Of a stretch of DNA of 64,000 nucleotides, positions 39,144-53,735 are shown piece by piece. Source of the DNA: a virus. The stretch spans positions 6,070 through 70,069 of the IMG/VR virus record IMGVR_UViG_3300021091_005158, one strand, 5' to 3'. Numbering within the stretch: position 1 is the first letter of the stretch; every line of letters begins with the position of its first letter. The notes under the pieces are model-generated. The model searched no databases, was not told the DNA's origin, and saw only the letters and a program-made list of their open reading frames with translations. A program made the translations under genes and the position numbers.

Positions 39144-39706
39144 TAAAAGTTCAAGAAAACTGGGGAATACTAATATCTCAGACCGGATCCGAGATTATTG
39201 CTATAGCTAAAGAAACCGGGTTTCTCCCTAGTCTCCTTGTTACTAATAGATTAAGTAAGATATCTGATGATAACCTGAGATTCTTTGGAGAAAATAGTGT
39301 AACAATAAAGACAATACCGTTTAAGCCTGTATTAAAAGATTATCTTTTTCCTGAACTACTTGAAAAAAAGCTAATTACTTTACATGGATTTTTGAGAATA
39401 TTACCTACTGGGTTTTTTAGTGAATACAAAGGCAAAATTTATAACGGTCATCCTGCACTCATTACTCGCTATCCTGAATTAAAAGGCTTTAATAAACAAG
39501 AAGATATTGTTAAAAATCATGAAAAGTACCCCGTTTGCGGCTCAGTAATTCACGAAGTAATTCCGGAATTAGATTCAGGGGAAGTTATAATAACAGCTAG
39601 TATCGAAAATACCGCAAAAACTGTAGACGAAGCATATTCTATTTTACGGACTACGTCTCTTCTTACTTGGGTAGAATTTTTTAAGAATACTTGGACCTTT
39701 CAGTAA
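39140..39706 (+). CDS. PurN/Fmt-type formyltransferase (candidate preQ1 N-formyltransferase)
   Basis: NGHPALITRYPELKG (N-x-H-P-[SA]-L-[LI] catalytic Asn/His) and HEVIPELDSGEVI (cf. GART HFVTEELDGGPVI catalytic Asp). Confidence 0.65.
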   Translation: MIKVQENWGILISQTGSEIIAIAKETGFLPSLLVTNRLSKISDDNLRFFGENSVTIKTIPFKPVLKDYLFPELLEKKLITLHGFLRILPTGFFSEYKGKIYNGHPALITRYPELKGFNKQEDIVKNHEKYPVCGSVIHEVIPELDSGEVIITASIENTAKTVDEAYSILRTTSLLTWVEFFKNTWTFQ

Positions 39707-39734
39707 ATATTCATATATTATATAAAATATTTAA

Positions 39735-40244
39735 ATGAAAATATTACTTGGATCTCACGGGACCGGAAAAACTACCTTACTTAAAGAGGTTGCTACTAAT
39801 TATCCCGGGTATTATGTTACTGATGGTTTCTCAAGACCTGTTATTAAGATAGGCAAGCAGCTGGAATTATCAGGTTATGAAAAGCAATACGTAATAAATG
39901 AACTATCTGCTTGGGCTTATCAAAATTACTTAACACATAAAAATGTAATTAGTACTCGAAGTATTGTTGATTGTATTATTTACTCCCAAATTTTAGCCCC
40001 TAATCTTGATATTGAAAACCTTATTACTCTATTTGAAGAAACTAAAGATCAAGTAGAACGTTTTTTTTATATACCTGTTGAGTTTGATTTTGAAGCCGAT
40101 CCTGATCGCTTAAGTCAAGAATTGCAATTAAAAATAGATCAAGTTATAAGAGAATTTATGATAAATTATATTCCTAAAGAAAAAGTAGTTATATTAAAAG
40201 GTACAGTAGAAGAACGTTTAAAATCGATATCCTTATATCTTTGA
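39735..40244 (+). CDS. P-loop NTPase (putative nucleotide/nucleoside kinase)
   Basis: Walker A GSHGTGKTTLLKEV at the N-terminus; small (169 aa) kinase-like size. Confidence 0.4.
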   Translation: MKILLGSHGTGKTTLLKEVATNYPGYYVTDGFSRPVIKIGKQLELSGYEKQYVINELSAWAYQNYLTHKNVISTRSIVDCIIYSQILAPNLDIENLITLFEETKDQVERFFYIPVEFDFEADPDRLSQELQLKIDQVIREFMINYIPKEKVVILKGTVEERLKSISLYL

Positions 40245-40247
40245 ATT

Positions 40248-40958
40248 ATGAGTAGAGATAAACATATTAAAATTGAAAAACTAGAGCTTGCACAAGCTGG
40301 CCATGCTAACGGTATTAGTACTTTTTTGCGAGACGCAATTAAAGAAGGAAGAAATTGTTTAACTGAAGGTGAAAAGAAGCTTATTATTGAAGCTGCTTCT
40401 TTACATTACGGCAATTTTCTAACTGCTTTAGGAGTTGACTGGGAAAACGACCCTAATAGCTCGAATACTCCTATGAGAGTGGCTAAGGCCTACGTAAACG
40501 ACTTATGGAAAGGTAGATATGAGCAGCTAGATTCTGTGACTAGCTTTCCGGCTGACGGTTATGACGGAGTAGTATTTGAAGGAGGTATCCCTATTACGAG
40601 TATGTGTAGTCACCATCATCAGACTATTAACGGCCTGTGTCATATCGCTTACGTGCCGACCCTTAAAAGTAGGGTAGTAGGTCTAAGTAAACTTAACCGA
40701 ATTGTAGAGCATTTTAGTAGAAGAGGTTCAATTCAAGAACAATTAACTGTAGCTATTCATAATGCTGTAGATAAAATTTGCGAAGATAATATTGGTGTTG
40801 CAGTAATGATTGAAGCAACTCATAACTGTGTAAGCTGTAGAGGTGTAAAGCATCAAGGTGCTAATATGAAGACCTCTAAGCTATCAGGATGCTTTTTAGT
40901 AGAAGATGCTGCACGAGCTGAATTTTATGAGTTTATTAAAGGTTACCCTAGGAAATAA
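40248..40958 (+). CDS. folE: GTP cyclohydrolase I (FolE)
   Basis: SMCSHHHQTING (cf. the CEHH zinc motif, Glu->Ser) and HNCVSCRGV (second zinc-Cys region); T-fold length plus an N-terminal extension. Confidence 0.65.
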   Translation: MSRDKHIKIEKLELAQAGHANGISTFLRDAIKEGRNCLTEGEKKLIIEAASLHYGNFLTALGVDWENDPNSSNTPMRVAKAYVNDLWKGRYEQLDSVTSFPADGYDGVVFEGGIPITSMCSHHHQTINGLCHIAYVPTLKSRVVGLSKLNRIVEHFSRRGSIQEQLTVAIHNAVDKICEDNIGVAVMIEATHNCVSCRGVKHQGANMKTSKLSGCFLVEDAARAEFYEFIKGYPRK

Positions 40959-40967
40959 TTTACAAAA

Positions 40968-41504
40968 ATGTTAAATGCACAACAAATCCTCGAAGAAGGA
41001 TTACTTAAGTTAGATAATACTAAAGGTAAAGTAGCTCAAGTTGGTTATGATATAACCCTTAAAGAGGTAAATAGAGTAGGTGATCCAAACGGAATCGACG
41101 AAAAACTTGTATATAGAAAATTCAAGATAGGTAAAGTTTTAAAGAATAAAACTGAATTAACTACTTATACTCCAGTTGAAACTATTCGTCTTGAAGAAGT
41201 TCAAGGATGGCTTTTGCATCCAGGTACATATGATATTGCATTTTGGGAAGGCTGTAGAATTCCAGATAATCGTGTAGCTTTTATTAAACAACGATCATCA
41301 TTATGGCGTAACGGTACTTTAATTAATTCGCCCGTATTTGATCCTGGTTTTGAGACTGAAAATATAGGAACAATTATGTTAGTAACTCAAACGATTTTTA
41401 TCGAAAAAGACGCTCGTGTAGCTCAAATATATTTTCACGAATGCACTCCAGCTGAAGAATATAACGGTCAGTGGCAAAACGATAAGCAGCGATCTTCCCT
41501 GTAA
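40968..41504 (+). CDS. dCTP deaminase/dUTPase-superfamily protein
   Basis: RSSLWRNG (motif III R-S-S-l-x-R-x-G) and VFDPGFETENIG (the DPGF-G uracil/cytosine pocket motif). Confidence 0.5.
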   Translation: MLNAQQILEEGLLKLDNTKGKVAQVGYDITLKEVNRVGDPNGIDEKLVYRKFKIGKVLKNKTELTTYTPVETIRLEEVQGWLLHPGTYDIAFWEGCRIPDNRVAFIKQRSSLWRNGTLINSPVFDPGFETENIGTIMLVTQTIFIEKDARVAQIYFHECTPAEEYNGQWQNDKQRSSL

Positions 41505-41514
41505 AGTATATATT

Positions 41515-41522
41515 TATATTTG
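41515..41522 (+). promoter_or_regulatory. Bacteroidetes-type -7 element TAtaTTTG
   Basis: Exact TAnnTTTG in the 158-bp intergenic region upstream of 41662. Confidence 0.3.
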
Positions 41523-41661
41523 TAAAAACATTTTTAAACACTTTAAGAAACAGGTCTATTCATTAAAGAATCAAACTAGTAGCGTTCAGATAAATTTTAA
41601 ATCTCTACTGCAGTGGTTACGAACGGATTATTAGTAAATTTAGACAGCAGTAACCCTTGAT

Positions 41662-41985
41662 ATGGAAAATTTTGATCCAAATAAAGAATCTGAAGGTCTT
41701 GGCGACACCATTGCTAAGGTTACTAATTTTCTAGGTATAGATAAAGTAGCTGAAGGTTTAGCTAAATTAGCGGGGGCTAAAGATTGTGGTTGTAGTAGAC
41801 GTAAGGATCTACTTAACGAATTGTTTCCATATAATCACTCCGTCAGAGAATTTAAAGTCTTAAAAGATTTTAAGCACGATAGTACTCTATTTAAGCAAGG
41901 TACAACTATACACGTAGCTAAAACAAGTAAAATTCGTAATAATATATTAAATTTAGTAAGGGACGGAATATTAGAAGAAGTATAA
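41662..41985 (+). CDS. Hypothetical protein
   Basis: ORF only. Confidence 0.25.
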   Translation: MENFDPNKESEGLGDTIAKVTNFLGIDKVAEGLAKLAGAKDCGCSRRKDLLNELFPYNHSVREFKVLKDFKHDSTLFKQGTTIHVAKTSKIRNNILNLVRDGILEEV

Positions 41986-41988
41986 AAT

Positions 41989-42168
41989 ATGATAATAGTA
42001 AATATAAATGGCTCAGTTGAACATGCTTTGAAGCAATATAAAAATAAACATAATAAAATAGGAATAATAAAAGAATTAAGAGATAGAAAGACCTTTATTA
42101 AACCTTCAGTTAAACGTAGAACTGAAATTTTAAAGGCTCGATACGTAGAGTCTAAAAAAATAAAATGA
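41989..42168 (+). CDS. rpsU: Phage-encoded ribosomal protein bS21
   Basis: Unlisted 59-aa ORF MIIVNINGSVEHALKQYKNKHNKIGIIKELRDRKTFIKPSVKRRTEILKARYVE..., matching the S21 pattern (V...E.aLkrFKr...k.Gi..E.RrR..F.KPs..Rr). Confidence 0.65.
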   Translation: MIIVNINGSVEHALKQYKNKHNKIGIIKELRDRKTFIKPSVKRRTEILKARYVESKKIK

Positions 42169-43184
42169 AGATAGATAAATATAATAAGCTAAGAGTAAAG
42201 CTTGAGGTGCATAAGCTTGAGCAAAACTATTTTACTTTAGATAGAATACTCTACTACTTTTCTTTTCTTGGTAATATATTCCTTATTTACTTTGGATACT
42301 TTTTTGTAAAGTCAATTACTGATAGTATCCCTCCTTTATTTCCTTTTCAGGATACTTTTTTTGCTATTTTCGTAGCACTTTTCCTTACTGGCTATGAACT
42401 AACTAAAAGGTTTGTCTTAGAACAATTGTCAATTAGCATTTTGCAAATAAAAAAATTTACTTATTCTATAGCTGTAGGATCAGTTATTTTTATGGGATTA
42501 ATGGCAGGAAGCTTCTACCTATCAATAAAAGGAGCTCATAGATTAATTGATGATTCAGAGACTATTCAAACCACTCTTGAAACTAGTATTTCATTGAAAG
42601 CCGATTCTATTGCGAAATATTACGATAAAGAGATTAATTATTACAGAACCCAGCCTTCTAAGTCAAGGGTAGATAGACAATATAGGGATTCAATAGTTGC
42701 TTCCCTGCAAAAAAGTAAAGAGACGAAATTAAACGAAATAGAGGATAAGTCTAAAGAAAAAACGGCTAGCAAGCTGGACGTAAGTAGCGAGAATTCAACA
42801 GCATTTTTCTTTATAACTGTATTTTTGGAATTATTAATCTTAGTAGGCGTAGGTTTTAACGCATACTATACTATAGGGAGTTACGACGAAACTAAGAAAC
42901 TCCTACAAACTCCCAAATTCAAGCAGTTGGAGCTTAACTTAAAACTACTTAAATTGTACTATCAAAACGGTAAGAAGTTAGCTGGTGACCCTACTCTATC
43001 TTTCAGCAAATTTCAATCTCTTGTACAGACTGCAGGCTTATACTGCTTTCAGAAAGACCTAAAAGCGTTTACTACTTTATGTCAAGAGCTCGAAATCGCT
43101 AGAGAGTCTAGGGGTAGAAAAAAAGAGTTAACTATGTCTTACGATCAAGCAAAAAAATTGATAGAAAATCAAGAAGGTTTTTAA
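42165..43184 (+). CDS. Membrane-anchored coiled-coil protein
   Basis: N-terminal TM helices (ILYYFSFLGNIFLIYFGYFFV ...) and a long helical Lys/Glu-rich C-terminus. Confidence 0.3.
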   Translation: MKIDKYNKLRVKLEVHKLEQNYFTLDRILYYFSFLGNIFLIYFGYFFVKSITDSIPPLFPFQDTFFAIFVALFLTGYELTKRFVLEQLSISILQIKKFTYSIAVGSVIFMGLMAGSFYLSIKGAHRLIDDSETIQTTLETSISLKADSIAKYYDKEINYYRTQPSKSRVDRQYRDSIVASLQKSKETKLNEIEDKSKEKTASKLDVSSENSTAFFFITVFLELLILVGVGFNAYYTIGSYDETKKLLQTPKFKQLELNLKLLKLYYQNGKKLAGDPTLSFSKFQSLVQTAGLYCFQKDLKAFTTLCQELEIARESRGRKKELTMSYDQAKKLIENQEGF

Positions 43185-45493
43185 TGCAGCAAAAAAGTTA
43201 TGTTATAGTAAATAATAAAGAAACGTTAAAAGAGTTAGTTCAGCATATAGCAACTAGCGAGTACGTAGCGTTAGATACTGAAACCGATAGTTTGAATCCT
43301 AGAAAGGGTCGAATTATCGGCTTTTCTATTTCTGGTGAAGTAGGTAAAGGTTACTATATGCCTATAATGGTATGGAATACTGATAGACTCGAAGAAGTAG
43401 TTATTGAAGGAAAAAACGCTAACGTTTTAGCTAAATATGTTATTAAGCAATTAATAGGGAAGAAAGTTATTTGTCATAACGCTTCTTTCGACTTACGTTA
43501 TATAGAGAATTTTTACGGAATTAACTTGTTAAATTATTTGCATGCTGATACTTCTCTACTTGTGCATACAGTAAAAGAAGAAGGAGCATTTGGATACGGT
43601 AATCCTTTTGGATTAAAAAGTATTGCTATAATGGTTCAAAAGGAAATCGGTTTAGATGTAGAAACTGAAGCTAATGAAGAACAAATAGCTCTTAAAGAGA
43701 GTATAAAAGCAAATGGCGGTTCAACTTCTAAGGAGAATTATGAGATATACAAAGCTGATTTAGTGGTACTATCAAAGTATGCAGCAGCCGATACCGACTT
43801 GACGCTACGTATCTATCATCACTTTTACAAAATATTAGTAGAGGAAGGTCTTGAAAAGTTTTTCTTTGAAGACGAGGTGATGCCTGTTTATAGAGAGGTT
43901 ACTATACCGATGGAGAAACACGGTATTAGATTAGATATCTCTCTTATTAAAGAAACTAAAGATAGAATAACTAAAGACCTCGAAGTGCAGGCAACAGCAG
44001 TACTCAAAGAGTTATTAAAAGAGCCTAAAGTACGCAAATGGATTATTGATCAAGCGGTAGAAGCGTATCCTCCAAAAAGCAAAGGTATATTTGCCCAACG
44101 TCTACTCGAGCAAAATAATATCGATCTACCTAAATCAAATAAGACAGGTAAATTTACTATAAATAAAGCGGCTATATTAGCTCTATCTCCTTCTACTATA
44201 AAGGATTACTTGATGACTGGTGATATAGAAAATCTCACTAAAGATCAAATTGTTAAAGTTAGTTTATCTTTATGGAAAGAGGATAATGACGGCCAGTTCT
44301 TTAATATACAGTCTAAAGATCAAATGGGTAAGATAGCTTTTGATGTATTAGGTGAGAAATCGATTTCAACAACTACTAAAGGAAAGGCTCAATTTGACGA
44401 AGATATGATCCAATCCATAAAGGACAAATATTTATGGGCAAATCATTTACGCTTATACAATAAACTTACTAAAATTAAAACTGCATACGTAGATCGATTT
44501 TTTGATTCAGCTGAGGATGGTAGATTTTATCCTTATTTCAAGCAGAACGGTACTGTATCAGGAAGATACGGATCAGATATGCAGCAGTTGCCTAAGCCAC
44601 TAGAGCCAGGTCAAGAGGAAGATTTAATTATTGGATATACAAACCTTGTAAGAGCTTTCTTTATTGCTGACGAAGGCACTAAGATACTTGATACTGATTA
44701 TGCATCTCTGGAACCTCGGGTATTTGCTACAGTAGCAGGTGATCAAGGTCTGAAAGATATTTTTAATAATGATTTAGATTTTTATTCTCATATTGCTATA
44801 AAAACCGAAAAGCTTGAAGGAGTAAGTGCCCATACCAAAGCTCCTAATTTTCTTAAAAAAATAGATCCCGTCAAAAGACAGACTGCAAAAGGTTATGCGT
44901 TAGGTGTACCGTACGGAATGTCCGGATATGCCCTAGCAATGTCGTTAGGAGTAGATAGGAAAGAAGGAGAAAGACTTGTAGAAGGTTACTTAGATGGATT
45001 TCCTGAATTAAGAAAGTGGAGAGAGAATTCTAGAAAGTTTGTTAAAGAGAACGGCTATATTAAGAATAAGGTAGGTCGAATCAGGCATTTGCCACAGGCT
45101 AAGGAAATCTATTCTGCCCTAGGGGATAGGCTTATTGAAGACTGGAGGTTTAGAAAAGATTTGGAGAGAGAGTATGGAGTAGAGTACACAACTGGTTTGT
45201 ATAGAGATTATAAAAATGCACTTAACAACTGTTTAAACTTTCAAATTCAGAGTTATTCAGCAAGCATAGTAAACCGTGCAGCCCTACAAATCAATAGGAG
45301 ATTCAAGGGAGAAGGCATTAGAGGGCAGGTAATTTGTCAAATTCATGACCAACTAGTATGCCAAGTTAAAGAAGAAGACGTAAAACGTGCATGCGAAATA
45401 GTACAAGACTGTATGGAGAATACAACTAAGCTAGAAGGTGTGCAACTTATTGCCGATCCGGAAGTTTCGGTTAATTTTCGTGATGGACACTAG
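43184..45493 (+). CDS. polA: DNA polymerase I (family A) with 3'-5' exonuclease domain
   Basis: Exo I VALDTETDSL; SGRYGSDMQQLP; motif A ILDTDYASLEPRVFA; motif B RQTAKGYALGVPYG; motif C QIHDQLVCQV. Confidence 0.85.
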   Translation: MQQKSYVIVNNKETLKELVQHIATSEYVALDTETDSLNPRKGRIIGFSISGEVGKGYYMPIMVWNTDRLEEVVIEGKNANVLAKYVIKQLIGKKVICHNASFDLRYIENFYGINLLNYLHADTSLLVHTVKEEGAFGYGNPFGLKSIAIMVQKEIGLDVETEANEEQIALKESIKANGGSTSKENYEIYKADLVVLSKYAAADTDLTLRIYHHFYKILVEEGLEKFFFEDEVMPVYREVTIPMEKHGIRLDISLIKETKDRITKDLEVQATAVLKELLKEPKVRKWIIDQAVEAYPPKSKGIFAQRLLEQNNIDLPKSNKTGKFTINKAAILALSPSTIKDYLMTGDIENLTKDQIVKVSLSLWKEDNDGQFFNIQSKDQMGKIAFDVLGEKSISTTTKGKAQFDEDMIQSIKDKYLWANHLRLYNKLTKIKTAYVDRFFDSAEDGRFYPYFKQNGTVSGRYGSDMQQLPKPLEPGQEEDLIIGYTNLVRAFFIADEGTKILDTDYASLEPRVFATVAGDQGLKDIFNNDLDFYSHIAIKTEKLEGVSAHTKAPNFLKKIDPVKRQTAKGYALGVPYGMSGYALAMSLGVDRKEGERLVEGYLDGFPELRKWRENSRKFVKENGYIKNKVGRIRHLPQAKEIYSALGDRLIEDWRFRKDLEREYGVEYTTGLYRDYKNALNNCLNFQIQSYSASIVNRAALQINRRFKGEGIRGQVICQIHDQLVCQVKEEDVKRACEIVQDCMENTTKLEGVQLIADPEVSVNFRDGH

Positions 45494-45530
45494 TTTTCTT
45501 TAAACAGATATATTTATTATAAATAAATAA

Positions 45531-45601: not shown

Positions 45602-46039
45602 ATGACAGCACTTTTTCGTGCGTTCGAGCTCGATCCGTTTGACTTGCTATGGAAAGACCTAAAAGAAGCACAAGCACATTTTTCTGCAATTACGCAGAGA
45701 GTAACCCATCCTGTTGATATTTTCGAAACTAAAAGCGGTATTCGTTTTGAAATAGCCGCAGTAGGCCTTAGTGTCGAGGATATTCTTATTTCTGTTGAGA
45801 ATGATTCTCTTAGAATTTGTTACGATAAACCTGCACAACAGGAAGAAAATCATCCAATTTATAAGGGTATTAAGAGATCAAGTTTTGATCTTACTTGGAA
45901 AATTTCAACTAAGTTCGACTTAAGTAACCTTGAAGCATCTCTCGATAAAGGTCTTTTGACTTTAAATATACCAATTGCTGTAGGTAAAGCTACTCGAAAA
46001 ATTTCTATTACTACACCTAAAGCTTTTCTTGAGAATTAA
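45602..46039 (+). CDS. Small heat-shock protein (Hsp20/alpha-crystallin family)
   Basis: Alpha-crystallin-domain pattern: ETKSGIRFEIAAVGLSVEDILISVENDSLRI...RSSFDLTWKIS...LDKGLLTLNIP. Confidence 0.6.
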   Translation: MTALFRAFELDPFDLLWKDLKEAQAHFSAITQRVTHPVDIFETKSGIRFEIAAVGLSVEDILISVENDSLRICYDKPAQQEENHPIYKGIKRSSFDLTWKISTKFDLSNLEASLDKGLLTLNIPIAVGKATRKISITTPKAFLEN

Positions 46040-46046
46040 ATAAGTA

Positions 46047-46060
46047 GCCTACTAAGTACC
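46047..46060. repeat. Right arm of the 14-bp inverted repeat flanking the Hsp20 gene
   Basis: gcctactaagtacc. Confidence 0.7.
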
Positions 46061-46064
46061 AGTT

Positions 46065-46253
46065 ATGTTTACACTTACTAAGCAGTTTATTCCATTTAAT
46101 AGCAAACTCTTTTTAATTAAAAAAATTATTAAGGAAGATGATTTTCCCGTAATAGAAGTCTGGAAAGAGTATCTTCAGGCCGATACAATATTAAAGAAAG
46201 AAGGATTACTTTATTTTTTAGTAACAGTTGAAGATTTGGAGATTATTTCTTAA
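46065..46253 (+). CDS. Hypothetical small protein
   Basis: ORF only. Confidence 0.2.
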   Translation: MFTLTKQFIPFNSKLFLIKKIIKEDDFPVIEVWKEYLQADTILKKEGLLYFLVTVEDLEIIS

Positions 46254-46273
46254 ATTAAATTAAAATAAAAAGT

Positions 46274-46645
46274 ATGTCGAAGTTACAACCGTTAAATGGG
46301 TATTTAATTTTAAGACCTATAGAAGAAGAGGAACAAATGTATGGTAATATTGTTATTCCAGATTTAGGAAAAGAGAGGCCTGAGATGGGAGAAGTGATTG
46401 CTGTCTCTGCTACGTATAATTTTAATTCTGATAAACTAGTACTTTCAAATCTTGAATTAGGAGACAAAGTTCTTATCCCTAAACTAGGTTCTCTAAGAAT
46501 CACTGTAGAAAGCGAAGAATATTTTATTTGCAAAGAGCAAGACGTCTACGCAAAATTAAGCGGACAATTAAGTGTTTTATCAGTTCTTAAAGAGACAGTA
46601 GTTGATCCTGATTTTGAAAAATACAACAACAGTAAAGTATCATAA
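46274..46645 (+). CDS. groES: Co-chaperonin GroES
   Basis: LQPLNGYLILRPIEEEEQ...GNIVIPD matches GroES (kPL.DRVlvkr.E.E..t.gGI.lP). Confidence 0.7.
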   Translation: MSKLQPLNGYLILRPIEEEEQMYGNIVIPDLGKERPEMGEVIAVSATYNFNSDKLVLSNLELGDKVLIPKLGSLRITVESEEYFICKEQDVYAKLSGQLSVLSVLKETVVDPDFEKYNNSKVS

Positions 46646-46646
46646 A

Positions 46647-48269
46647 ATGACAACAACAGTATTTGGAATTGAATTAAAAAATAAGTTACTTGCGGGTATT
46701 AAAAAATTAAATGAATCGGTAACTTCCACTTTAGGGCCAGGAGGCCGTACAGTGTTAATTAAAGAAAAATCTGGCGAAGTAAAAGTAACTAAAGACGGAG
46801 TTACAGTAGCTCGTTCCTTTCACGAACTTGAAGACCAGGTTGAAGACCTTGGTGCCCAGCTAGTAAAGCAGGTATCCATAAAGTCTGCTAATGAAGCAGG
46901 AGACGGAACTACTACCTCTACTCTTCTTGCTACAACAATGGTTGAAGAAGGATTAAAGCTTATTAATCAAGGATCTAACCCAGTAGAGGTTAAGAAAGCT
47001 ATTGAGGTTTACGTAAAAGAAGTTATCGATAACTTAAAAAAAATATCGAAAGATATTTCCTCTCAAGATCAAATTCGTCAAGTAGCAGCTATCTCTGCAA
47101 ATAACGATATTGAGATAGGCAATCTAATATCAGCTGCTATTGAAAAAGTAGGAAGAGAAGGTATTGTTACTATTGAAGAATCTAAAACAGGTGAAACTGC
47201 TTTGGAGATAGTAGAAGGTATGCAGTTTGATAGAGGATACAAATCCCCATACTTCGTTACTAATAATACTACAATGCATGCAGTCTTGAATGAACCTTAT
47301 ATTCTTATTTACGATGGCCGTATCACTAAAGCTGCTGATATTTTAAATTCGTTAACTAAAGCCAACTCCGATCAAAAAGCTTTACTAATAGTAGCTGAAG
47401 ATATAGAAGACGAAGCGCTTGCTACTTTGATAGTAAATAAAATGCGCGGTATAGTTTATGTAGCAGGAGTAAAAGCTCCTGACTTTGGGGAACGCCGTAC
47501 TTTAATCTTAGAAGATCTAGCTATTTTAACCGGGGGACAGGTAATTTCTAAAAATAAAGGACATAAACTAGAGAAAATAACCCCGTTACAGTTAACGGAA
47601 TTTTTCGGAGTCGCAAGAACTGTTACGGTATCTAAAGAAACCACTACTATAGTTGATGGCAAAGGTAATATAGATGCTATAAGCTTAAGAGCTGAAGAGA
47701 TAAAAGATCAAATTGAAAAAGCTACATCATTTTATGAGAAAGAAAAGCTTCAGGAGAGGCTTGGTAAATTAGTTGGCGGAGTAGCTATTATTTCAGTAGG
47801 AGGAAATTCCGATATTGAGATTAAAGAAAAGAAAGATAGGGTAGAAGATGCTTTGTTTGCTACTAAAGCAGCTCTAGTAGAAGGCGTAGTTCCTGGTGGA
47901 GGACTTGCATTAATTACAGCATTCGAAAATATTAAATTACCTTTAACATCAAGCGATGAGCAAAAAGGTTGGAATATAGTTAAAAGAGCTTGTCATGCTC
48001 CTTTCAAAGTAATTTTAACAAACTGTGGTATTGAAGATCACTACCGTATTTTAAGTGAAATTAAGAATTATGAAAGTCAAGAATCAGCTCACACTTATGA
48101 TGCTAAAAATCAAAAAGTAGTAGAGGCAACTGAAGCAGGTCTTCTTGATCCGACTAAAGTCACACGTACTGCTCTTGAAAATGCTGCCTCCGTAGCAGGT
48201 ACTATACTAACAACAGAATCAGTAATTTTCGAAAAAAAAGACGATAAGAAAAAAGATGAAGAAATTTAA
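46647..48269 (+). CDS. groEL: Chaperonin GroEL
   Basis: [17 protein letters not shown] and GGGLAL motifs. Start placed at MTTTVFG (46647), just after the GroES stop; the listed ORF start at 46602 overlaps GroES. Confidence 0.85.
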
Positions 48270-48357
48270 AAAATATACTAATAGCTTCTGATTTAACTAG
48301 AATTCCTATTTATTTATGGATGTTTATATTAAGTTTTTAATAATTTAAATTTAAGGT

Positions 48358-49122
48358 ATGAGAGTAGTTCTTATAAGTGATACTCATACTAGACATAAGT
48401 ATTTAACTTCGAAGGGAACGGGAAACATTCTCAAAGAAGGCGACTTGTTAATACATGCAGGAGATTTTTCTAGTGTTGGTCAAAAAGGAGAAGTTCAAAA
48501 TTTTATTAAATGGTTAGACCAGCAATCAAAAAACTATACATACGGAGCTATTTTTATAGCTGGAAATCATGATAGGAGTTTTGATCCAAAATATTTTAGA
48601 GAGTATGAAGATAACGATTTATGGGGCGATTTTTCGCACCTTAAAAAGCCCGAGTGGGTTTGTAATATTTTATCTGATCTTAAATCTAGCAGTTCTAGCG
48701 TTACTTATTTGGAAAACCAGGACGTAACTGTAAATAAACTTAAGATATGGGGATCTCCTGTAACGCCTTGGTTTTTTGGAGAAAAGTGGGCTTTCAATAA
48801 ACAAAGAGGAGCTGAAATAAAAGAGGTTTGGAATAAAATTCCAGTAGATACTGATATTATAATAACCCACTGTCCTGTTATAGGTCGGTTAGATTATGTT
48901 CCATCTACTAAAGAATATGCAGGATGTGAAGAATTAAGAAATAAGATTGAAGAAATAAAACCAGTACTACATGTATGTGGACATATACACGAAGGGTATG
49001 GAGAAAGTATAGTTAACGGTACAGTATATGTAAACGCTAGCATATGCGATCGATTTTATGACCCTATAAATAAACCTATTGTAATTGATATTGATATTAA
49101 AAATAAAAATGTAATTTATTAA
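48358..49122 (+). CDS. Calcineurin-like metallophosphoesterase
   Basis: VVLISDTHTRH, HAGDF, IAGNHD, ITHCP, CGHIHE: the metal-binding motif series. Confidence 0.65.
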   Translation: MRVVLISDTHTRHKYLTSKGTGNILKEGDLLIHAGDFSSVGQKGEVQNFIKWLDQQSKNYTYGAIFIAGNHDRSFDPKYFREYEDNDLWGDFSHLKKPEWVCNILSDLKSSSSSVTYLENQDVTVNKLKIWGSPVTPWFFGEKWAFNKQRGAEIKEVWNKIPVDTDIIITHCPVIGRLDYVPSTKEYAGCEELRNKIEEIKPVLHVCGHIHEGYGESIVNGTVYVNASICDRFYDPINKPIVIDIDIKNKNVIY

Positions 49123-49124
49123 TA

Positions 49125-49475
49125 ATGGAAAATAAAACTTTTGATTTTGCAAAGTATCAAGGAGTCTTGTTAAAACTCACTAAAACAGAAGATAGAAGAT
49201 TTTCTGATAATCACCCTAATGGCGTTGAGGTCGGACGTGTAGAAAAAGGACTTCTTCATTTAGAGAATTCCAATAAGTACCAATGCGTGTTTATTCTAGA
49301 CGGACCTGACCGCTACTTTCATACATCACAGGTTTTAGAAATTTGGGAACATGAAGGATATGATTTAGTGAAAACTCTTAACTCTACTTATAAAATTGAA
49401 CCACAAATAGTATCGATTCCAGGTGAACAGCAAAAACATTCTGTAGATATTGTTTCATCAGAGAAAAATTCTTAA
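49125..49475 (+). CDS. Hypothetical protein
   Basis: ORF only. Confidence 0.25.
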   Translation: MENKTFDFAKYQGVLLKLTKTEDRRFSDNHPNGVEVGRVEKGLLHLENSNKYQCVFILDGPDRYFHTSQVLEIWEHEGYDLVKTLNSTYKIEPQIVSIPGEQQKHSVDIVSSEKNS

Positions 49476-49492
49476 TTTTACAAAAAAGAAGT

Positions 49493-49744
49493 ATGGTATA
49501 TTATTTTACTGCAGCCTGGTGTGGACCTTGTAAAATGTTTAAGCCAATAGTCCAAGAAGTAAGCTCGGAACTTGAAATCGGCATAGTTTATGTAGACGTA
49601 GATCAGCAGAGAGATATGGCGATGAAGTACGGTGTAACAAGTGTTCCAACTATAATGATTGAAAACAACGGAAGTGTTTTATATAGAAATTCCGGCGTTA
49701 TATCAAAATCGCAATTAAAACAAGCTTTATCACAATTCAGGTAA
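49493..49744 (+). CDS. trxA: Thioredoxin
   Basis: WCGPCK active site; 83 aa. Confidence 0.8.
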   Translation: MVYYFTAAWCGPCKMFKPIVQEVSSELEIGIVYVDVDQQRDMAMKYGVTSVPTIMIENNGSVLYRNSGVISKSQLKQALSQFR

Positions 49745-49880
49745 ATTATATCGTAAACTCTAGCAACCATCTATATTCTTGTAATACCTTGACACCTTAC
49801 AAGCCTTATCTTTACTTTTTAGTCTAATTTTATATATTTATAACTAATAATTACACATAAAATAAAAATAAAATAAAATC

Positions 49881-50771
49881 ATGAAAAAAATTGCAAAAAT
49901 TTTAATTGCACTCGGAATTGGTTCTCTCATAGCAGGAGCAATTTTATGGAATTGGAATCAACCAACTCCAACTCCACCTCAACCATTACCAACAGTAGAT
50001 ACAACACAATACACTGATGTCGTGTTAGTAAACAAATCACAACTTGATTCAGTTCAAGTGTGGGTTACCCTCCAAGCAGGAGAATCAATTGTTGGTCTAT
50101 TTGGTATGGACTCTTCGAACATGTTCAACAGTCAATCAGATGTTGGTAACTTTTGGGCTAAAAAAGGTATTGAATATCACTTAGGCGATACAACCGCTTT
50201 AACTGGTGTTATCGTTACATGGGGAGTTCAAAACCAAGCGTGTACAGCTGCACAAGCTGCAGGTTATCCATTCGGTATTAATAATTTCGAATTTACGGTA
50301 AATACATGGTGGCAAAACGGTGAGCTAACAGGTGCGGGCGAATCATTTGATATCACATGTGTTGATGGACTACATTCCATACTACAACAAAACGTAACTT
50401 CATTCGGTCCGAGAGTAGATTCCGTCCTTTCTCCAAATTTCGGAGCATTTTGGGATTTCGGATATAAAGATAACACAGGAAAACTTAAGCCATTCGTTGG
50501 TTCAACAAACGGTGCTACTTTTGCTGAATGTGTAAATATTCCTGGTGTATTCCCTTACCAATGTGATTGGGGATACAGACAGTATTCACCACCTCCAGCA
50601 TGTAGTAATCCTTCCTATCCTGTAAAATGTTCTGATAAATGGGGACAAATAAATACGTCTCAAACAAATAGACAAGGTCAAGGTGGTCAAGTCATTTGTA
50701 CATTTATAGGATTTACAGCTGACCTACAACCAGGTTCAGGTGATAGTGCTTCAACCTTAAAGGTAAAGTAA
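49881..50771 (+). CDS. Secreted/anchored Cys-rich protein
   Basis: N-terminal signal/anchor MKKIAKILIALGIGSLIAGAIL; about 12 Cys in the mature part. Confidence 0.3.
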   Translation: MKKIAKILIALGIGSLIAGAILWNWNQPTPTPPQPLPTVDTTQYTDVVLVNKSQLDSVQVWVTLQAGESIVGLFGMDSSNMFNSQSDVGNFWAKKGIEYHLGDTTALTGVIVTWGVQNQACTAAQAAGYPFGINNFEFTVNTWWQNGELTGAGESFDITCVDGLHSILQQNVTSFGPRVDSVLSPNFGAFWDFGYKDNTGKLKPFVGSTNGATFAECVNIPGVFPYQCDWGYRQYSPPPACSNPSYPVKCSDKWGQINTSQTNRQGQGGQVICTFIGFTADLQPGSGDSASTLKVK

Positions 50772-50850
50772 AAAGATTTCATCTAATAATCAGCCGCTAA
50801 GGCTACGCAGGATCAATATCTTTTGCTTTATAGTTAGTTCTTTATAATAT

Positions 50851-51278
50851 GGGGGAGTCCAGGTATTGCTCCGTAATGTGAAGGTAATACTACATGCAGG
50901 CGTTTGGATATGTCGCCTTTAAACAAATTTTCAAACAATAAATGACGAAATGTCAACAATGACCTATGATGACCTAGTGGCATTTGTAGGTGCTGAAGAG
51001 TACGCATACGCGGCTTAGTAAGCTTGGGGCAGCTGATAGCCTCGCAACAGAACAGCAGCGAGTCGTACGCTATAGAGACGGCATCCGGACGCATATTGCG
51101 AGCCGTGAGTTTCCTAGTTTAGAGTAAAATTAGGTGGTGGAAGGCACGCTAACCAAAACTAGTGGCCCCAACTACTGATCAGCTTGCAGATCTAAGCATG
51201 TGATACGCTGGTGTTATTGTTCCTTATGGATACACGGGTTCGATTCCCGTCTCCTCCACTATTTATAGATGTAAAAGA
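50851..51278 (+). ncRNA. ssrA: tmRNA (SsrA)-like gene
   Basis: 5' GGGGGAG pairs with 3' CTCCTCC (7 bp, one G-U), followed by discriminator A. T-arm acggg-TTCGATT-cccgt. Internal tag-like ORF ggt gct gaa gag tac gca tac gcg gct TAG TAA (G-A-E-E-Y-A-Y-A-A**) at 50989-51021. Confidence 0.55.
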
Positions 51279-51285
51279 GTATGAA

Positions 51286-51331
51286 AACGTTACTTACATC
51301 TATATCTTTTTCATTAAGCACCTTTATAGTA
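51286..51331 (+). terminator. Intrinsic terminator downstream of tmRNA
   Basis: tagatgtaa ... ttacatcta 9-bp stem followed by a T-rich tract (tatctttttc). Confidence 0.5.
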
Positions 51332-51429
51332 GTACAACCTACTGGTGTATATACAGGAAATTTTTCAAATAAATTAAAGACCGGGCCTATAAAAGGTAAC
51401 AAAAATGATACATAGTTAAATAAAGTATT

Positions 51430-52287
51430 ATGAAAAAATGTATTTTATTTGTTTTTTTAATATTCTTATTACAATTTTCAACTTTTTCTCAAACTGAAAA
51501 AGACCAGAAATTATCAATTCGTAATAATATTTCTTCACAATCAACTACTGCTACATCGCGAATCACAACCACCGAAAGTTTCGATAAACAAGAAATAAAA
51601 AGAGAACAATATAGGTCTAAACAAAACACTTTTAAACCGCCTTCTCCACCGATGTGGGGTGGAATTGGCGGATGGAATCAATGGCGTAGATGGGGAGCTC
51701 CATATTTCTACAATAATGTTTATGATTGGAATGTATACGACAGATGGGGATATAAAAAACCTGCAAAAATATTTCAGCATTTAAATGGTAAAAGAGATAC
51801 TATTATTAGTAAAAAAAATAAAGTTAGAGTTGGTATTAATTTATCAACGAATAATGAACTTGGAGCATGGTTTACAATTGGAAAAGGCGTTTATTTAAAA
51901 GGGCAGTTTAACAAAATTATGAGTGGTGACCGCTCTGAATTTTATAATCACTCAAATGTGAATTTTTATAATGCTTCAACAGTTTGGAATGACCAGAGAT
52001 TAGTAGATATAATTAAAGGATGGTCAGTATATTTTGGAGTAGGAAGGGAAATGAAACATTTTGGTGTTAATTTATCATTTGGTATAGGAAACGAGCAGGA
52101 AAATTTTCAGTTTTATGATGAGCTGAAAATACTTTCTAATAATGGAAGATACTCGTTTAAAAACTTTATAGACAATTACGTTTCAACAAGTGTTGGAATT
52201 ACTCATGATTATAAATTTGTATCAATTTCTGCAGATTATGACCCATTTAGAAAGACGTTTTGGTTAGGAACTGGGTTTAATTTTTAA
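51430..52287 (+). CDS. Putative outer-membrane beta-barrel (OMP-like) protein
   Basis: Signal peptide MKKCILFVFLIFLLQFSTFSQ; alternating amphipathic strands; C-terminal ...GTGFNF (terminal Phe typical of OMPs). Confidence 0.35.
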   Translation: MKKCILFVFLIFLLQFSTFSQTEKDQKLSIRNNISSQSTTATSRITTTESFDKQEIKREQYRSKQNTFKPPSPPMWGGIGGWNQWRRWGAPYFYNNVYDWNVYDRWGYKKPAKIFQHLNGKRDTIISKKNKVRVGINLSTNNELGAWFTIGKGVYLKGQFNKIMSGDRSEFYNHSNVNFYNASTVWNDQRLVDIIKGWSVYFGVGREMKHFGVNLSFGIGNEQENFQFYDELKILSNNGRYSFKNFIDNYVSTSVGITHDYKFVSISADYDPFRKTFWLGTGFNF

Positions 52288-52288
52288 T

Positions 52289-52612
52289 ATGATTACAGTA
52301 ACAGAAACAGCAAGTAAAAAAATCCATGAATTAATAAATCAAAGTGGATTCAATAAACCATATCTTCGTGTTGGAGTTAAAGGTGGAGGCTGCTCAGGCT
52401 TAACTTATGAATTAGAATTTGATACGGATAAAAAACAAGGTGATGAATTATTTGAAGATAAGAACGTAAAAATTTTAGTTAACATGAAATCTTTATTATA
52501 TTTATTTGGCACTGAATTAGAATTTAGTGATGGATTAAATGGTAAAGGATTTCAATTTATAAACCCAAATGCAAATAGAACCTGCGGTTGCGGAGAATCG
52601 TTTGCAGTATAA
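52289..52612 (+). CDS. iscA: Fe-S cluster carrier IscA/HesB family
   Basis: GGCSGLTYELEF ... CGCGESF: the three-Cys IscA signature. Confidence 0.75.
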   Translation: MITVTETASKKIHELINQSGFNKPYLRVGVKGGGCSGLTYELEFDTDKKQGDELFEDKNVKILVNMKSLLYLFGTELEFSDGLNGKGFQFINPNANRTCGCGESFAV

Positions 52613-53167: not shown

Positions 53168-53240
53168 TGACTATTAGCTCAGAAGGTTAGAGCAAGCCCT
53201 AAATCAGGCCGTGCCACTGGTTCGATTCCAGTATAGTCAC
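53168..53240 (+). tRNA. tRNA-like gene with non-canonical anticodon arm (possible pseudo-tRNA)
   Basis: Acceptor tgactat/atagtca, D-arm gctc-agaaggtta-gagc and T-arm actgg-TTCGATT-ccagt are intact. The 17-nt anticodon region agccctaaatcaggccg does not fold into a 5-bp stem. Confidence 0.35.
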
Positions 53241-53247
53241 CTTATAC

Positions 53248-53321
53248 TGACTCTTAGCTCAGTTGGTGAGAGCGGCTGACTCATAATCAGTAGGTGACTG
53301 GTTCGATTCCAGTAGAGTCAA
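53248..53321 (+). tRNA. tRNA-Met/Ile2 (anticodon CAT)
   Basis: Acceptor tgactct/agagtca; D-arm gctc...gagc; anticodon stem gctga/tcagt with loop ctCATaa; T-arm actgg-TTCGATT-ccagt. Confidence 0.7.
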
Positions 53322-53323
53322 CG

Positions 53324-53421
53324 AACAGGGTGGCGAAAAAGAGCGGGCATATGACCGCCGAAGGTTAGACGTAGACGAAAGTCTGCCGCAAGGCGTGAAG
53401 GTTCGATTCCTTCCCCTGTTC
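53324..53421 (+). tRNA. Long tRNA-like element (possibly a type II tRNA or a tRNA with an insertion)
   Basis: Acceptor aacaggg/ccctgtt; T-arm gaagg-(g)TTCGATT-ccttc; about 98 nt with the internal hairpins gcgg..ccgc and tagac..gtctg. The D-arm could not be resolved by eye. Confidence 0.35.
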
Positions 53422-53435
53422 CAAGTTACTGCTCT

Positions 53436-53735
53436 TTGACATATAAGGAGAGACAAATTATGGAAACACTATCATTCATTTTAGGGATAGCGTCTGTGGT
53501 GGTTATTGCTACGGCAATAGTTGCTGTTTACGCATTCGTTAAGGTAAATAAAGTACAAATACGAGTTAATGATCTAGAAACGTTATTATCTCGTGAAAAT
53601 GAAAACATTCTCAGAATAATTAATACTGAAATTCAAAACGTATCTAGACATGTTGATAATGTTGAAAGAGATATTTACAGTCAAATGGATTCACGTTTTG
53701 ATAGATTAGAAAATAAATTAACTAACAAAAAATAA
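53436..53735 (+). CDS. Membrane-anchored coiled-coil protein
   Basis: N-terminal TM helix followed by a helical segment. Confidence 0.3.
   Translation: MTYKERQIMETLSFILGIASVVVIATAIVAVYAFVKVNKVQIRVNDLETLLSRENENILRIINTEIQNVSRHVDNVERDIYSQMDSRFDRLENKLTNKK

Follow-up and report, generated by a model that had tools for sequence, protein, structure and literature searches.

The stretch of viral DNA analysed here, which we call the window (64,000 nt, positions 6,070 to 70,069 of IMG/VR record IMGVR_UViG_3300021091_005158), holds a 59-codon ORF between its nucleotide-modification genes and its DNA polymerase gene. This raises the question of whether a phage encodes its own ribosomal protein bS21 at this place and, if so, what the protein would do in the infected cell. 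The Ribosomal_S21 HMM search that the initial annotation had proposed matched the product to Pfam PF01165 (E=6.9e-13, 48.5 bits for a gathering score of 27 bits, profile positions 3–52 of 55), and the equivalog model TIGR00030 gave 39.4 bits over positions 3–57 of 58, with a cut-off of 28.95 bits. PHROG 21469 'ribosomal protein S21' was matched as well (E=4e-8), and the best relative of solved structure is the bS21 of Flavobacterium johnsoniae (7JIL chain z, E=3e-11), which aligns without gaps over residues 7–57 (51 residues). The residue strings quoted when the gene was first noticed are present in the translation of the ORF. The identity proposed at that time is borne out by these scores above curated cut-offs and by the closest PDB relative, together with the phage context and the conservation in phage contigs described below. 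The gene had also been called unannotated, which holds for the ORF track of that first reading only, while in JGI, ENA and Logan the same protein, letter for letter, is already tagged PF01165, and public gene calls give relatives the product name 'small subunit ribosomal protein S21'. The 59-aa protein has a net charge of +12 and no N-terminal extension; an AF2 model (pLDDT 84.9) shows two helices, at residues 10–34 and 41–58. Foldseek searches of this model against the PDB returned 8 matches, all of them bS21 or mS21 chains and none significant (best 7qv1_b, E=0.34, TM 0.34), so that bS21 membership rests on the sequence profiles. The V shape that bS21 takes on the ribosome is not necessarily recovered when the two helices are modelled alone.

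The location given initially, with a modification cluster upstream and polA downstream, is correct, and one gene, encoding a 339-aa protein, separates bS21 from polA (Table 1). Upstream lie genes for QueC, a QueF-like protein, a formyltransferase, AAA_28 and FolE, and a dCTP-deaminase-like gene; bS21 is co-directional with its neighbours, between the dCTP-deaminase-like gene and polA, and an Hsp20 gene is found three genes downstream. The 107-aa ORF that precedes bS21 has a weak match to PHROG 32048 only, is present in the relatives L002-L009 and is probably in one transcript with bS21. At the other end, the overlap first described as ATGA is there, since the bS21 stop codon TGA (42166-42168) shares nucleotides with the ATG (42165-42167) of the 339-aa ORF, and this arrangement suggests a possible translational coupling of the two genes. 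The 4-nt overlap recurs in the relatives L010-L012 (S21 end 6180, next gene start 6177) and is absent from the polB-type relatives L013-L015. The 339-aa ORF gave no Pfam or PHROG match and is kept after S21 in L002-L012.

Table 1. Positions of the bS21 gene, its parts and its neighbours in the window.
Feature	Position	Strand	Basis or remark
107-aa ORF, unknown function	41662..41985	+	stop 3 nt before bS21 start
bS21 translation initiation region, A-rich, SD-less	41959..41988	+	A at -2 to -5, -10, -11, -13, -14
bS21 ORF	41989..42168	+	ATG start, 59 codons, product MIIVNINGSVEHALKQYKNKHNKIGIIKELRDRKTFIKPSVKRRTEILKARYVESKKIK (59 aa)
Phage-specific helix-1 face, residues 15-26 (KQYKNKHNKIGI)	42031..42066	+	column-by-column contrast
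Inter-helix hinge K38-P-S-V-K-R-R44	42100..42120	+	alignment columns 40-46
Tyr52 codon TAC	42142..42144	+	F. johnsoniae Tyr54 by ungapped +2 offset to 7JIL bS21
ATGA stop/start overlap, bS21 / 339-aa ORF	42165..42168	+	ORF coordinates
339-aa ORF, membrane-protein-like	42165..43184	+	downstream of bS21, ends at polA start
Family A DNA polymerase (polA)	43184..45493	+	tblastn to immuto polymerase; PF01612, PF00476

The polA product is 54.8% identical to the polymerase of Flavobacterium phage vB_FspM_immuto (tblastn) and the locus is syntenic; polA marks the replication module and ties the window to Immutovirus. A megablast of positions 40000-46000 against the INPHARED phages gave no match, and relatives were therefore found at the protein level. 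Genes for the tail sheath, DnaB and RNR lie on the same strand as bS21, which is flanked by phage structural and replication genes. Judged from its sequence, the window is that of a myovirus related to immuto; this freshwater-type, immuto-like phage most probably has a member of the Bacteroidota as host, likely one of the Flavobacteriales. The lineage carries a small translation and proteostasis kit made up of bS21, tmRNA, tRNA, Hsp20 and GroES/EL.

Public data yielded 89 homologues of the phage bS21, 87 of which form a phage clade. Identity within this clade of about 87 metagenomic relatives is 66–100%, the contigs reach 161 kb, and the gene always lies within a nucleotide-metabolism/replication module. 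More than 24 contigs, independent of one another and from different samples, carry an identical bS21 gene within this phage setting, and bS21 is also present in related contigs of 110–161 kb. The initial annotation had named the lack of an S21 profile hit and of conservation in related phages as reasons to abandon the assignment; the profile hits are there, and contigs of related phages keep the gene. Compared with L067, it displays 13 synonymous and 7 non-synonymous changes (dN/dS 0.10), and compared with L010 pS is 0.77 and pN 0.13; the dN/dS with L068 was left out, an indel having shifted the codon alignment. The gene is under purifying selection. Located on a viral genome, conserved among relatives and under such selection, it encodes a virus-encoded ribosomal protein in the sense of Mizuno 2019, and the 59-codon ORF is a real and conserved phage gene for a bS21 of the Bacteroidota type. 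A scan of genomes gave 51 bacterial bS21 loci, 50 from Bacteroidota and one from a Chlorobiota MAG, and the phage protein matches bacterial bS21 over the full length with 42–56% identity. In a neighbour-joining tree (40 bootstraps) the phage clade nests among Bacteroidota, with monophyly in only 17–20 of the 40 bootstraps, and the tree resolved no bacterial donor for the phage gene.

We compared 88 non-bacterial rows (the 87 clade members and P0088, with P0089 left out) with 32 bacterial sequences in one alignment. Tyr52 is invariant in all 88 non-bacterial rows, and tyrosine is found at this position in 30 of the 32 bacterial sequences. It is followed by the aliphatic Val53 at the position of F. 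johnsoniae Ile55, which gives the phage protein the Bacteroidota-type signature, defined by Tyr54 and a following aliphatic residue (Ile55 in F. johnsoniae), both of which contact the 16S 3' tail (PMC7797042). In F. johnsoniae, Tyr54 stacks on 16S A1534 and redirects the tail with the anti-Shine-Dalgarno (anti-SD) sequence into a pocket of the platform (PMC7797042). The hinge residues K/P/S/V/K/R/R are likewise shared, by 32/32 bacterial sequences and by 71–88 of the 88 non-bacterial rows per column. Helix 1 is where phage and bacteria part: in F. johnsoniae numbering, the phage has Q, N, H, N, I and I/V where bacteria have R18, R21, F23, D/E24, T26 and T28. N19, H21, N22 and I24 of the phage protein each occur in 73–84 of the 88 non-bacterial rows, where bacteria have R, F, D/E and T, and the net charge of helix 1 is +3.0 in the phage versus +6.5 in bacteria. 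In other phage bS21 clades the helix-1 positions Arg21, Phe23, Asp25 and Thr28 are also divergent (PMC9723584). A simple topping-up of the host protein would not need such conserved changes in helix 1, which suggest that the phage protein differs from host bS21 in some aspect of its function. Finally, the C-tail after Tyr52 (VESKKIK, 7 residues, charge +2; phage-clade mean +1.95 for 87 members) is not of the Bacteroidota type, being shorter and basic, while the tails of the 32 Bacteroidota sequences have a mean charge of -0.09 and about 10 residues.

The leaders of the window had been described at the outset as A-rich and SD-less, and the counts agree. SD-like pairing, with a threshold of -6 kcal/mol or stronger, is present upstream of 1.3% of 79 genes versus 8.3% of control positions; the share of A rises to 72% at -10/-11, that of G being 4–15%. 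The best anti-SD pairing of the bS21 leader is -1.9 kcal/mol, and that of relatives ranges from -1.5 to +2.9; among the viral bS21 genes sampled none has an SD upstream, with pairing no stronger than -3.8 kcal/mol. Flavobacteriaceae rpsU leaders carry an extended SD (GAGAGGAGGT / GGGGAGGT), and this element of the SD-autoregulated rpsU genes of Flavobacteriia is lacking from the phage bS21 leader. The bacterial bS21 genes closest to that of the phage (Owenweeksia, Cryomorphaceae, MED-G17) have no SD either. Only one gene of the window, a 91-aa membrane ORF, has a strong SD-like leader (53445-53450); the idea that this gene might be sensitive to bS21 was set aside, as 1 in 79 is below the chance rate. 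A scan for sigma-70 promoters and terminators around bS21 found 17 sites, with 18.4 expected from shuffles. In the window, neither the Bacteroidetes-type -7 motif TAnnTTTG (87 versus 82 expected) nor the two-box form of the Bacteroidetes promoter (1 versus 2.1 expected) is enriched. Because the motif is not enriched, TATATTTG at 41515-41522, just past the dCTP-deaminase-like gene, is only a candidate promoter. Expression timing is not derivable from the sequence by these promoter scans; from the position of bS21 in the replication module we infer early or middle expression.

What might such a protein do? We consider it somewhat probable that the phage bS21 gene is expressed, that its product enters the host 30S subunit and that ribosomes thereby stay bS21-replete, 'SD-blind' and outside the autoregulation of the host. 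Its leader, like those of all genes of the phage, is A-rich and without SD, so that ordinary bS21-replete ribosomes would make the protein and it would escape the autoregulation by which many Flavobacteriia limit host rpsU through the SD. Through the KPSVKRR hinge and the C-terminal helix it would bind the 30S platform, replacing host bS21 or adding to it, and Tyr52, stacked on A1534 as F. johnsoniae Tyr54 is, would hold the 16S rRNA 3' tail, anti-SD included, in its sequestered position. Ribosomes would then remain in a state in which they work efficiently on leaders that are A-rich and lack an SD. The less basic helix 1 and the short basic C-tail probably adjust how well the protein competes for its binding site, or else the surroundings of the mRNA exit and bS1. 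Several observations from other systems bear on these steps. In F. johnsoniae, the absence of bS21 from ribosomes frees the anti-SD, destabilises bS1/uS2 and lowers activity on mRNAs without SD (PMC13000457), and rpsU of the host type in Flavobacteriaceae is translated mainly by bS21-less ribosomes (PMC9976891, PMC13000457). Besides, the binding of bS21 is loose and lets the protein be exchanged; E. coli ribosomes take up a pelagiphage bS21 and are then almost inactive, with only about 5% activity in vitro (PMC6375957). For the phage protein we infer ribosome incorporation, retained anti-SD sequestration and a benefit to phage translation. Since the closest bacterial bS21 genes lack an SD, the escape from autoregulation may not matter in the real host.

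Other readings go further than a maintenance of the bS21-replete state. Phage bS21 might replace host bS21 and, by its altered helix 1, favour initiation on phage over host transcripts, a model of specialised ribosomes that has been proposed before (PMC6375957, PMC7162821, PMC9723584). The helix-1 substitutions fit this model, being systematic and conserved through the 88 non-bacterial rows and accompanied by the drop in charge; other phages diverge at these positions too, and helix 1 lies over the would-be mRNA site (PMC9723584). Selectivity has been shown for no phage bS21 so far, however, and no feature was found that separates the phage leaders from those typical of Bacteroidia, both being SD-less with upstream adenines (PMC13000457). 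Moreover, the F. johnsoniae initiation complex with an SD-less mRNA displays no mRNA density upstream of -3 (PMC13000457), hence no contact between bS21 and mRNA is documented. We regard preferential initiation as a tentative possibility, on the unlikely side. It is distinctly unlikely that this SD-independent variant, keeping Tyr54, is no spare part but exploits circuitry specific to Bacteroidia, in that it fills the 30S subunits, hides the anti-SD and shuts off the SD-dependent rpsU of the host until bS21 is fully replaced by a form with a markedly less basic helix 1 and a basic C-tail. Such a form could change the surroundings of bS1 and the mRNA exit to the benefit of phage leaders. On this reading ribosome conversion would begin early in infection, as the gene belongs to a replication module and is probably expressed early or in the middle, unlike the late bS21 of the structural modules of other phages. 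Quite improbable, in turn, is that the phage bS21 acts mainly against the host, occluding the anti-SD, repressing host rpsU and progressively replacing host bS21, perhaps with a variant that is partly inhibitory for translation or assembly. The extended SD of Flavobacteriaceae rpsU, which is translated mainly by ribosomes lacking bS21 (PMC9976891, PMC13000457), the SD-less phage gene with its retained Tyr54 and the low in vitro activity (about 5%) of ribosomes carrying the pelagiphage protein (PMC6375957) would all be in line with such a shut-off. Against it stand the missing SD of the nearest bacterial genes and the turnover of bS21, which may be so slow that replacement has little effect within a lytic cycle.

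A role away from the ribosome, as a small RNA-binding regulator or chaperone (of phage tmRNA/tRNAs or of the coupled 339-aa membrane protein) or as a protein packaged in the virion, would agree with the possible translational coupling to the conserved membrane-like ORF339. Non-ribosomal partners of bS21 are reported elsewhere, for instance the OLE RNP (PMC12054373), and packaging in virions was raised as a possibility by Chen et al. (PMC9723584). The invariance of the ribosome-binding residues and of the Bacteroidota-specific Tyr54 is nonetheless hard to explain without a ribosomal site, and the coupling is absent in polB-type relatives, which makes this role very improbable. As to the gene itself, a short ORF in AT-rich sequence (about 33% GC) is of the kind that arises by chance, and a bacterial rpsU could in principle sit on a mis-assembled or host-derived fragment. 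Both origins were rejected and their probability is practically negligible, given profile scores above curated cut-offs, purifying selection, an identical gene that recurs with its phage neighbours on over 24 independent contigs, same-strand phage structural and replication genes on its flanks and an identity of only 42–56% to any bacterial bS21 recovered.

Phage-encoded bS21 is the commonest virus-borne ribosomal protein, and an effect on translation has never been demonstrated for it. For F. johnsoniae, structures and genetics now give a detailed picture of how bS21 works in Bacteroidia, from the sequestration of the anti-SD to rpsU autoregulation and the stabilisation of bS1. A compact phage bS21 without extension, with Tyr54 and defined changes in helix 1 and tail, would be a clean reagent to separate the maintenance of ribosomes from their reprogramming. 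For annotation, the bS21 gene should be called in this phage lineage; no new category of biology is involved, and the gene is a solid but ordinary find among phage 'translation take-over' genes, which are already well documented.

Among known systems, the closest cultured phage, immuto (Immutovirus), shares the order of queuosine/7-deazaguanine cluster, polA, GroES and GroEL. No bS21 was detectable in immuto by tblastn with E up to 10, which implies that bS21 is dispensable for this phage type. In the slot before polA, immuto has two unrelated hypothetical genes: its gp200 and gp201 were compared with ORF339 and ORF107, respectively, and are not homologous to them. The claim made at the outset that viral S21 is known mainly from phages of Bacteroidetes holds for the link to Bacteroidetes (PMC9723584, PMC7162821), but the first viral bS21 came from a pelagiphage, and such proteins are common among aquatic viruses at large (PMC6375957). 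The bS21 of Pelagibacter phage HTVC008M is the only phage bS21 experimentally shown to enter ribosomes (PMC6375957). Like the one studied here it is encoded by a large (>130 kb) aquatic myovirus; however, it is of alphaproteobacterial origin, outside the Bacteroidota context of anti-SD sequestration, and tblastn gave 43% identity over residues 7–43 with E=0.3. The freshwater Bacteroidetes phages of Chen et al. 2022 (PMC9723584) and the viral clade of 78–81-aa proteins (L071-L087) are nearer in kind, with a Bacteroidota-like bS21, an aromatic residue at 54, a helix 1 divergent at the same positions and SD-less leaders, although identity to L071-L087 is only 33–47%. Hsp20, a common bS21 neighbour in the Chen et al. 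survey (PMC9723584), lies near bS21 here as well. In the phages of that survey bS21 is expressed late and lies on the reverse strand in the structural module, between the genes for the prohead protease and the major capsid protein (PMC9723584), a placement that we confirmed for L074. Here, instead, the gene is co-directional within the nucleotide-modification/replication module and not in a reverse-strand terminase/portal/protease/capsid setting, and it lacks the basic N-terminal extension that many bS21 proteins of those phages have (PMC7162821). The bS21 of F. johnsoniae (7JIL z) and of other Bacteroidota agrees with the phage protein in length class, two-helix layout, the alignment of M1 to M1, the KPSVKRR hinge, and Tyr54 with its following aliphatic residue. 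The phage protein differs from it in being virus-encoded, in a helix 1 with about 3.5 fewer positive charges (R18Q, R21N, F23H, D24N, T26I, T28I), and in a gene without SD, whereas rpsU of Flavobacteriaceae uses its extended SD in autoregulation.

The product of the 59-aa ORF was identified as bS21 by four concurring sequence comparisons. The Pfam Ribosomal_S21 model (PF01165), a search named beforehand as one on which this reading could fall, matches over model positions 3-52 of 55 with E=6.9e-13 and 48.5 bits (gathering score 27) and upholds it; the NCBIfam equivalog model TIGR00030 gives 39.4 bits (cut-off 28.95), and PHROG 21469 'ribosomal protein S21' is matched with E=4e-8. Among all PDB chains the closest is 7jil_z, bS21 of the Flavobacterium johnsoniae ribosome (E=3e-11; ungapped, window residues 7-57 on F. 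johnsoniae residues 9-59), followed by further bacterial bS21 chains. An AlphaFold2 model built with 31 homologues (mean pLDDT 84.9) has helices at residues 10-34 and 41-58, and this predicted two-helix layout is the one expected for bS21. Since Foldseek searches with the model returned bS21/mS21 chains only, all of them non-significant (best E=0.34), family membership rests on the sequence profiles. The initial annotation had placed the ORF correctly, and the ATGA overlap that it described between the bS21 stop and the start of the next gene, ORF339, was confirmed.

Features of the window around the bS21 gene and in the associated modules
Feature	Position	Strand	Remarks
Tail sheath	4409..6178	+
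PTPS/QueD-like	31170..31634	+	7-deazaguanine (queuosine-precursor) DNA-modification cluster, 31170..41504
QueC	36570..37460	+	7-deazaguanine cluster
QueF-like	38226..39143	+	7-deazaguanine cluster
FolE	40248..40958	+	7-deazaguanine cluster
dCTP-deaminase-like protein	40968..41504	+	7-deazaguanine cluster
ORF107	41662..41985	+	107 aa; ends 3 nt upstream of the bS21 ORF
bS21 ORF	41989..42168	+	59 aa, MIIVNINGSVEHALKQYKNKHNKIGIIKELRDRKTFIKPSVKRRTEILKARYVESKKIK; ATG at 41989, TGA at 42166-42168
ORF339	42165..43184	+	339 aa; ATG inside the final ATGA of the bS21 ORF
Hsp20	45602..46039	+	proteostasis block after polA, 45602..52612
GroES	46274..46645	+	proteostasis block
GroEL	46602..48269	+	proteostasis block; TTG start as listed
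tmRNA	50851..51261	+	Rfam RF00023, full-length match, 56.2 bits (gathering score 47)
Fe-S cluster assembly protein	52289..52612	+	proteostasis block
tRNA, anticodon CAU	53248..53321	+	68.9 bits

The bS21 ORF is a phage gene. All 60-odd long ORFs of the window lie on the + strand, and besides the proteins listed in the table they encode a DnaB-like helicase, a ribonucleotide reductase, a family A DNA polymerase, a PD-(D/E)XK nuclease and glycosyltransferases, while the 7-deazaguanine cluster also holds a formyltransferase and an AAA_28 kinase-like protein. No nucleotide-level relative of the window was found in INPHARED; its polymerase and the one from Flavobacterium phage vB_FspM_immuto (Immutovirus, 160 kb) share 54.8% identity, and the gene order queuosine cluster, polA, GroES, GroEL is common to both phages. 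In immuto, however, the slot before polA is occupied by two hypothetical genes unrelated to ORF107 and ORF339, and no bS21 was detectable by tblastn (E up to 10). A 259-aa ORF inside the cluster (37457..38236, +) has no Pfam match and may be a DpdA-like transglycosylase as in immuto. Elsewhere, a 465-aa ORF with a GTG start (22691..24088, +) may be a fusion: its N-terminal residues 1-120 resemble endonuclease V / pyrimidine-dimer N-glycosylase, and residues 127-416 form an exonuclease domain.

Because the same phage encodes a tmRNA, a tRNA, Hsp20, GroES, GroEL, thioredoxin and an Fe-S assembly protein, bS21 is one item of a small translation and proteostasis kit. The thioredoxin, called on the identical JGI contig, and a metallophosphatase also belong to the block after polA, and ARAGORN predicts AEEYAYAA as the tag peptide of the tmRNA. 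The tRNA(CAU), a solid match, does not look like an initiator: positions 1 and 72 form a U1-A72 pair, and the anticodon stem lacks GGG/CCC. Elongator Met and Ile2 are its possible identities. Next to it, a 98-nt tRNA-like element with an encoded CCA end (53324..53421, +) scores below threshold (23.8 bits against 29), and an odd ARAGORN 'tRNA-???' with a 4-base anticodon (53168..53241) has no Rfam support.

The gene had been put forward as unannotated. This holds only for the ORF track of the initial annotation: the identical protein, encoded by 24 or more contigs of several independent metagenomes (JGI, ENA, Logan) and always in the same context, already carries PF01165 in public gene calls. 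The search of large databases returned 89 homologues, 87 of which form a tight clade (66-100% identity), so that conservation in related phages, on which the reality of such a small ORF had been made to depend, was indeed found. For the homologue P0021 (79% identity) the contig is 113 kb long and its genes run DCD-like, x, x, S21, ORF339, polA, Hsp20, GroES, GroEL, again with the 4-nt S21/ORF339 overlap. P0072 (72% identity) is found on contigs of 115-161 kb, flanked by FolE and the DCD-like gene, in a phage whose polymerase slot holds a family B enzyme. Given the context kept on all these contigs, bS21 is stably maintained across a broad lineage of phages, always in the nucleotide-metabolism/replication module. 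The window gene differs from that of the related locus L067 by 13 synonymous and 7 non-synonymous changes (dN/dS 0.10), and from that of locus L010 with synonymous sites saturated (pS 0.77) and pN of 0.13, a pattern indicating purifying selection.

With respect to the polymerase, three viral loci (L013-L015) share with the window the arrangement FolE, S21, DCD, Hsp20, GroES, GroEL and have a family B enzyme (about 7543..10113 in L013) where the window (43184..45493) and immuto have family A. The pattern resembles an exchange of the replicative polymerase inside one phage lineage; in L014 and L015 a block of four glycosyltransferases is inserted at the polymerase site.

The leaders of 79 + strand genes were scored for their best anti-SD pairing between positions -20 and -4. 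Pairing reached -6 kcal/mol in 1.3% of them, as compared to 8.3% of random window positions; G accounts for 4-15% at each position from -1 to -20, while A peaks at -10/-11 (72%), -13 (59%) and -3 and -5 (54-57%). The A-rich, SD-less leaders noticed in the initial annotation are thus borne out in numbers, and they match the initiation mode of Bacteroidia, F. johnsoniae initiating without SD and with upstream adenines at -3, -6, -12 and -13 (PMC13000457). The sole strong SD-like leader, TAAGGAGAG, is placed 9 nt ahead of the ATG at 53460 (-8.2 kcal/mol); it belongs to a 91-aa membrane/coiled-coil ORF that matches DUF4446 weakly, leader and ORF together taking up 53445..53735 (+). This leader is probably not meaningful, one in 79 being below the chance rate. 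The bS21 gene itself has the A-rich leader AGAAGAAGTATAAAAT-ATG (best pairing -1.9 kcal/mol), and no SD precedes any viral bS21 gene examined, whereas sampled Flavobacteriaceae rpsU leaders contain GAGAGGAGGT or GGGGAGGT, an extended SD that ties host bS21 synthesis to bS21-free ribosomes (PMC9976891, PMC13000453, PMC13000457). Among the bacterial rpsU loci, the extended SD (GAGAGGAGGT, GGGGAGGT or AAGGAGGT) occurs in Flavobacterium, Flavobacteriaceae and Chitinophagaceae and is absent from Owenweeksia, Cryomorphaceae-like Flavobacteriales MAGs and several Bacteroidia MAGs, a distribution consistent with lineage-dependent autoregulation as reported for F. johnsoniae.

A search through bacterial genomes, one for each species, gave 51 rpsU loci with full-length matches at 42-56% identity, all from Bacteroidota (including Owenweeksia, Cryomorphaceae, Flavobacterium, Flavobacteriaceae, Saprospiraceae and Chitinophagales) except one Chlorobiota MAG. 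In a neighbour-joining tree the phage clade falls within Bacteroidota-type sequences and adjoins a second viral clade; just 17-20 of 40 bootstraps recover its monophyly, and the tree singles out no donor lineage, which is as much as a protein of 59 residues can yield. The Bacteroidota-type bS21, the leader statistics and the kinship with a Flavobacterium phage are three independent lines pointing to a host in the Bacteroidota, probably in the Flavobacteriales.

We then aligned 88 homologues (the 87 clade members and the outlier P0088, P0089 being left out) with 32 distinct bacterial proteins. Both groups have the hinge KPSVKRR and the C-terminal helix in common, and Tyr52 is invariant in all 88 homologue rows. 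Its counterpart, the phylum-specific Tyr54 of F. johnsoniae, stacks on A1534 where the 16S 3' tail bends toward the bS18/bS6 pocket that conceals the anti-SD; Ile55, which corresponds to Val53 in the window, likewise touches this tail (PMC7797042). In helix 1, bacterial R18, R21, F23, D/E24, T26 and T28 (F. johnsoniae numbering) are replaced by Q, N, H, N, I and I/V, with window N19, H21, N22 and I24 each present in 73-84 of the 88 rows, and these replacements lower the net charge of the helix from +6.5 in bacteria to +3.0 in the phage clade. Past the tyrosine, the phage tail has 7 residues and is basic (+2), as against about 10 residues and a charge of about 0 in bacteria.

The ribosome holds bS21 only loosely, so that the protein can be exchanged, and bS21 of a pelagiphage is incorporated into E. 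coli ribosomes (PMC6375957). When F. johnsoniae 30S subunits lack bS21, their anti-SD is released and bS1/uS2 are no longer ordered; in the bS21ΔC mutant, activity on SD-less mRNAs is reduced (PMC13000457). Based on this biochemistry, the retained binding determinants and Tyr54, and the SD-less leaders of the bS21 gene and of the phage genes, we infer that the phage protein most likely functions by joining host 30S subunits and keeping them bS21-replete with the anti-SD hidden, a state that would translate SD-less, A-rich phage messages well; the host autoregulatory loop would not limit its production. The sequence itself shows the gene, its family, its conservation and the leaders, whereas entry into ribosomes and any influence on translation are inferred. 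The conserved changes in helix 1 and in the tail speak against a mere copy of the host protein. These changes could strengthen competition for the binding site, could shift mRNA choice as in the hijacking model of the literature or, together with the SD-less leader, could lead to full replacement through silencing of host rpsU. The gene belongs to the replication module, where polA follows two genes downstream, and this position suggests that the window bS21 is expressed earlier than the structural-module bS21 of Chen et al., a suggestion drawn from gene position, as no promoter is assignable to it from the window sequence.

Phage bS21 is well documented, in 1310 viral genomes and contigs (Mizuno et al. 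2019), in huge phages (Al-Shayeb et al. 2020) and in five freshwater Bacteroidetes-phage clades (Chen et al. 2022), whose survey of 900 published bS21 phages already counts Hsp20 and DNA-processing genes as common neighbours. In the second viral clade retrieved here (L071-L087) the proteins are 78-81 aa long, are extended at the N-terminus by a basic stretch (MNKKQKQHQ.IVPG...) and carry either Tyr or Phe in place of Tyr54; in its member L074 the gene (5947..6192) lies between those for the prohead protease and the major capsid protein, with PhoH nearby, which is the structural-module context of Chen et al. 2022. The window bS21 is of the same kind as the described cases: in the clades of Chen et al., unrelated to that of the window, helix 1 diverges at the same positions (Arg21, Phe23, Asp25 and Thr28, significantly) and an aromatic residue is conserved at position 54 (PMC9723584). 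It differs from the characterised clades in that it is co-directional within a replication module instead of lying in the protease/capsid interval, belongs to immuto-like myoviruses of about 110-160 kb, and lacks the N-terminal extension present in many huge-phage bS21 (PMC7162821).
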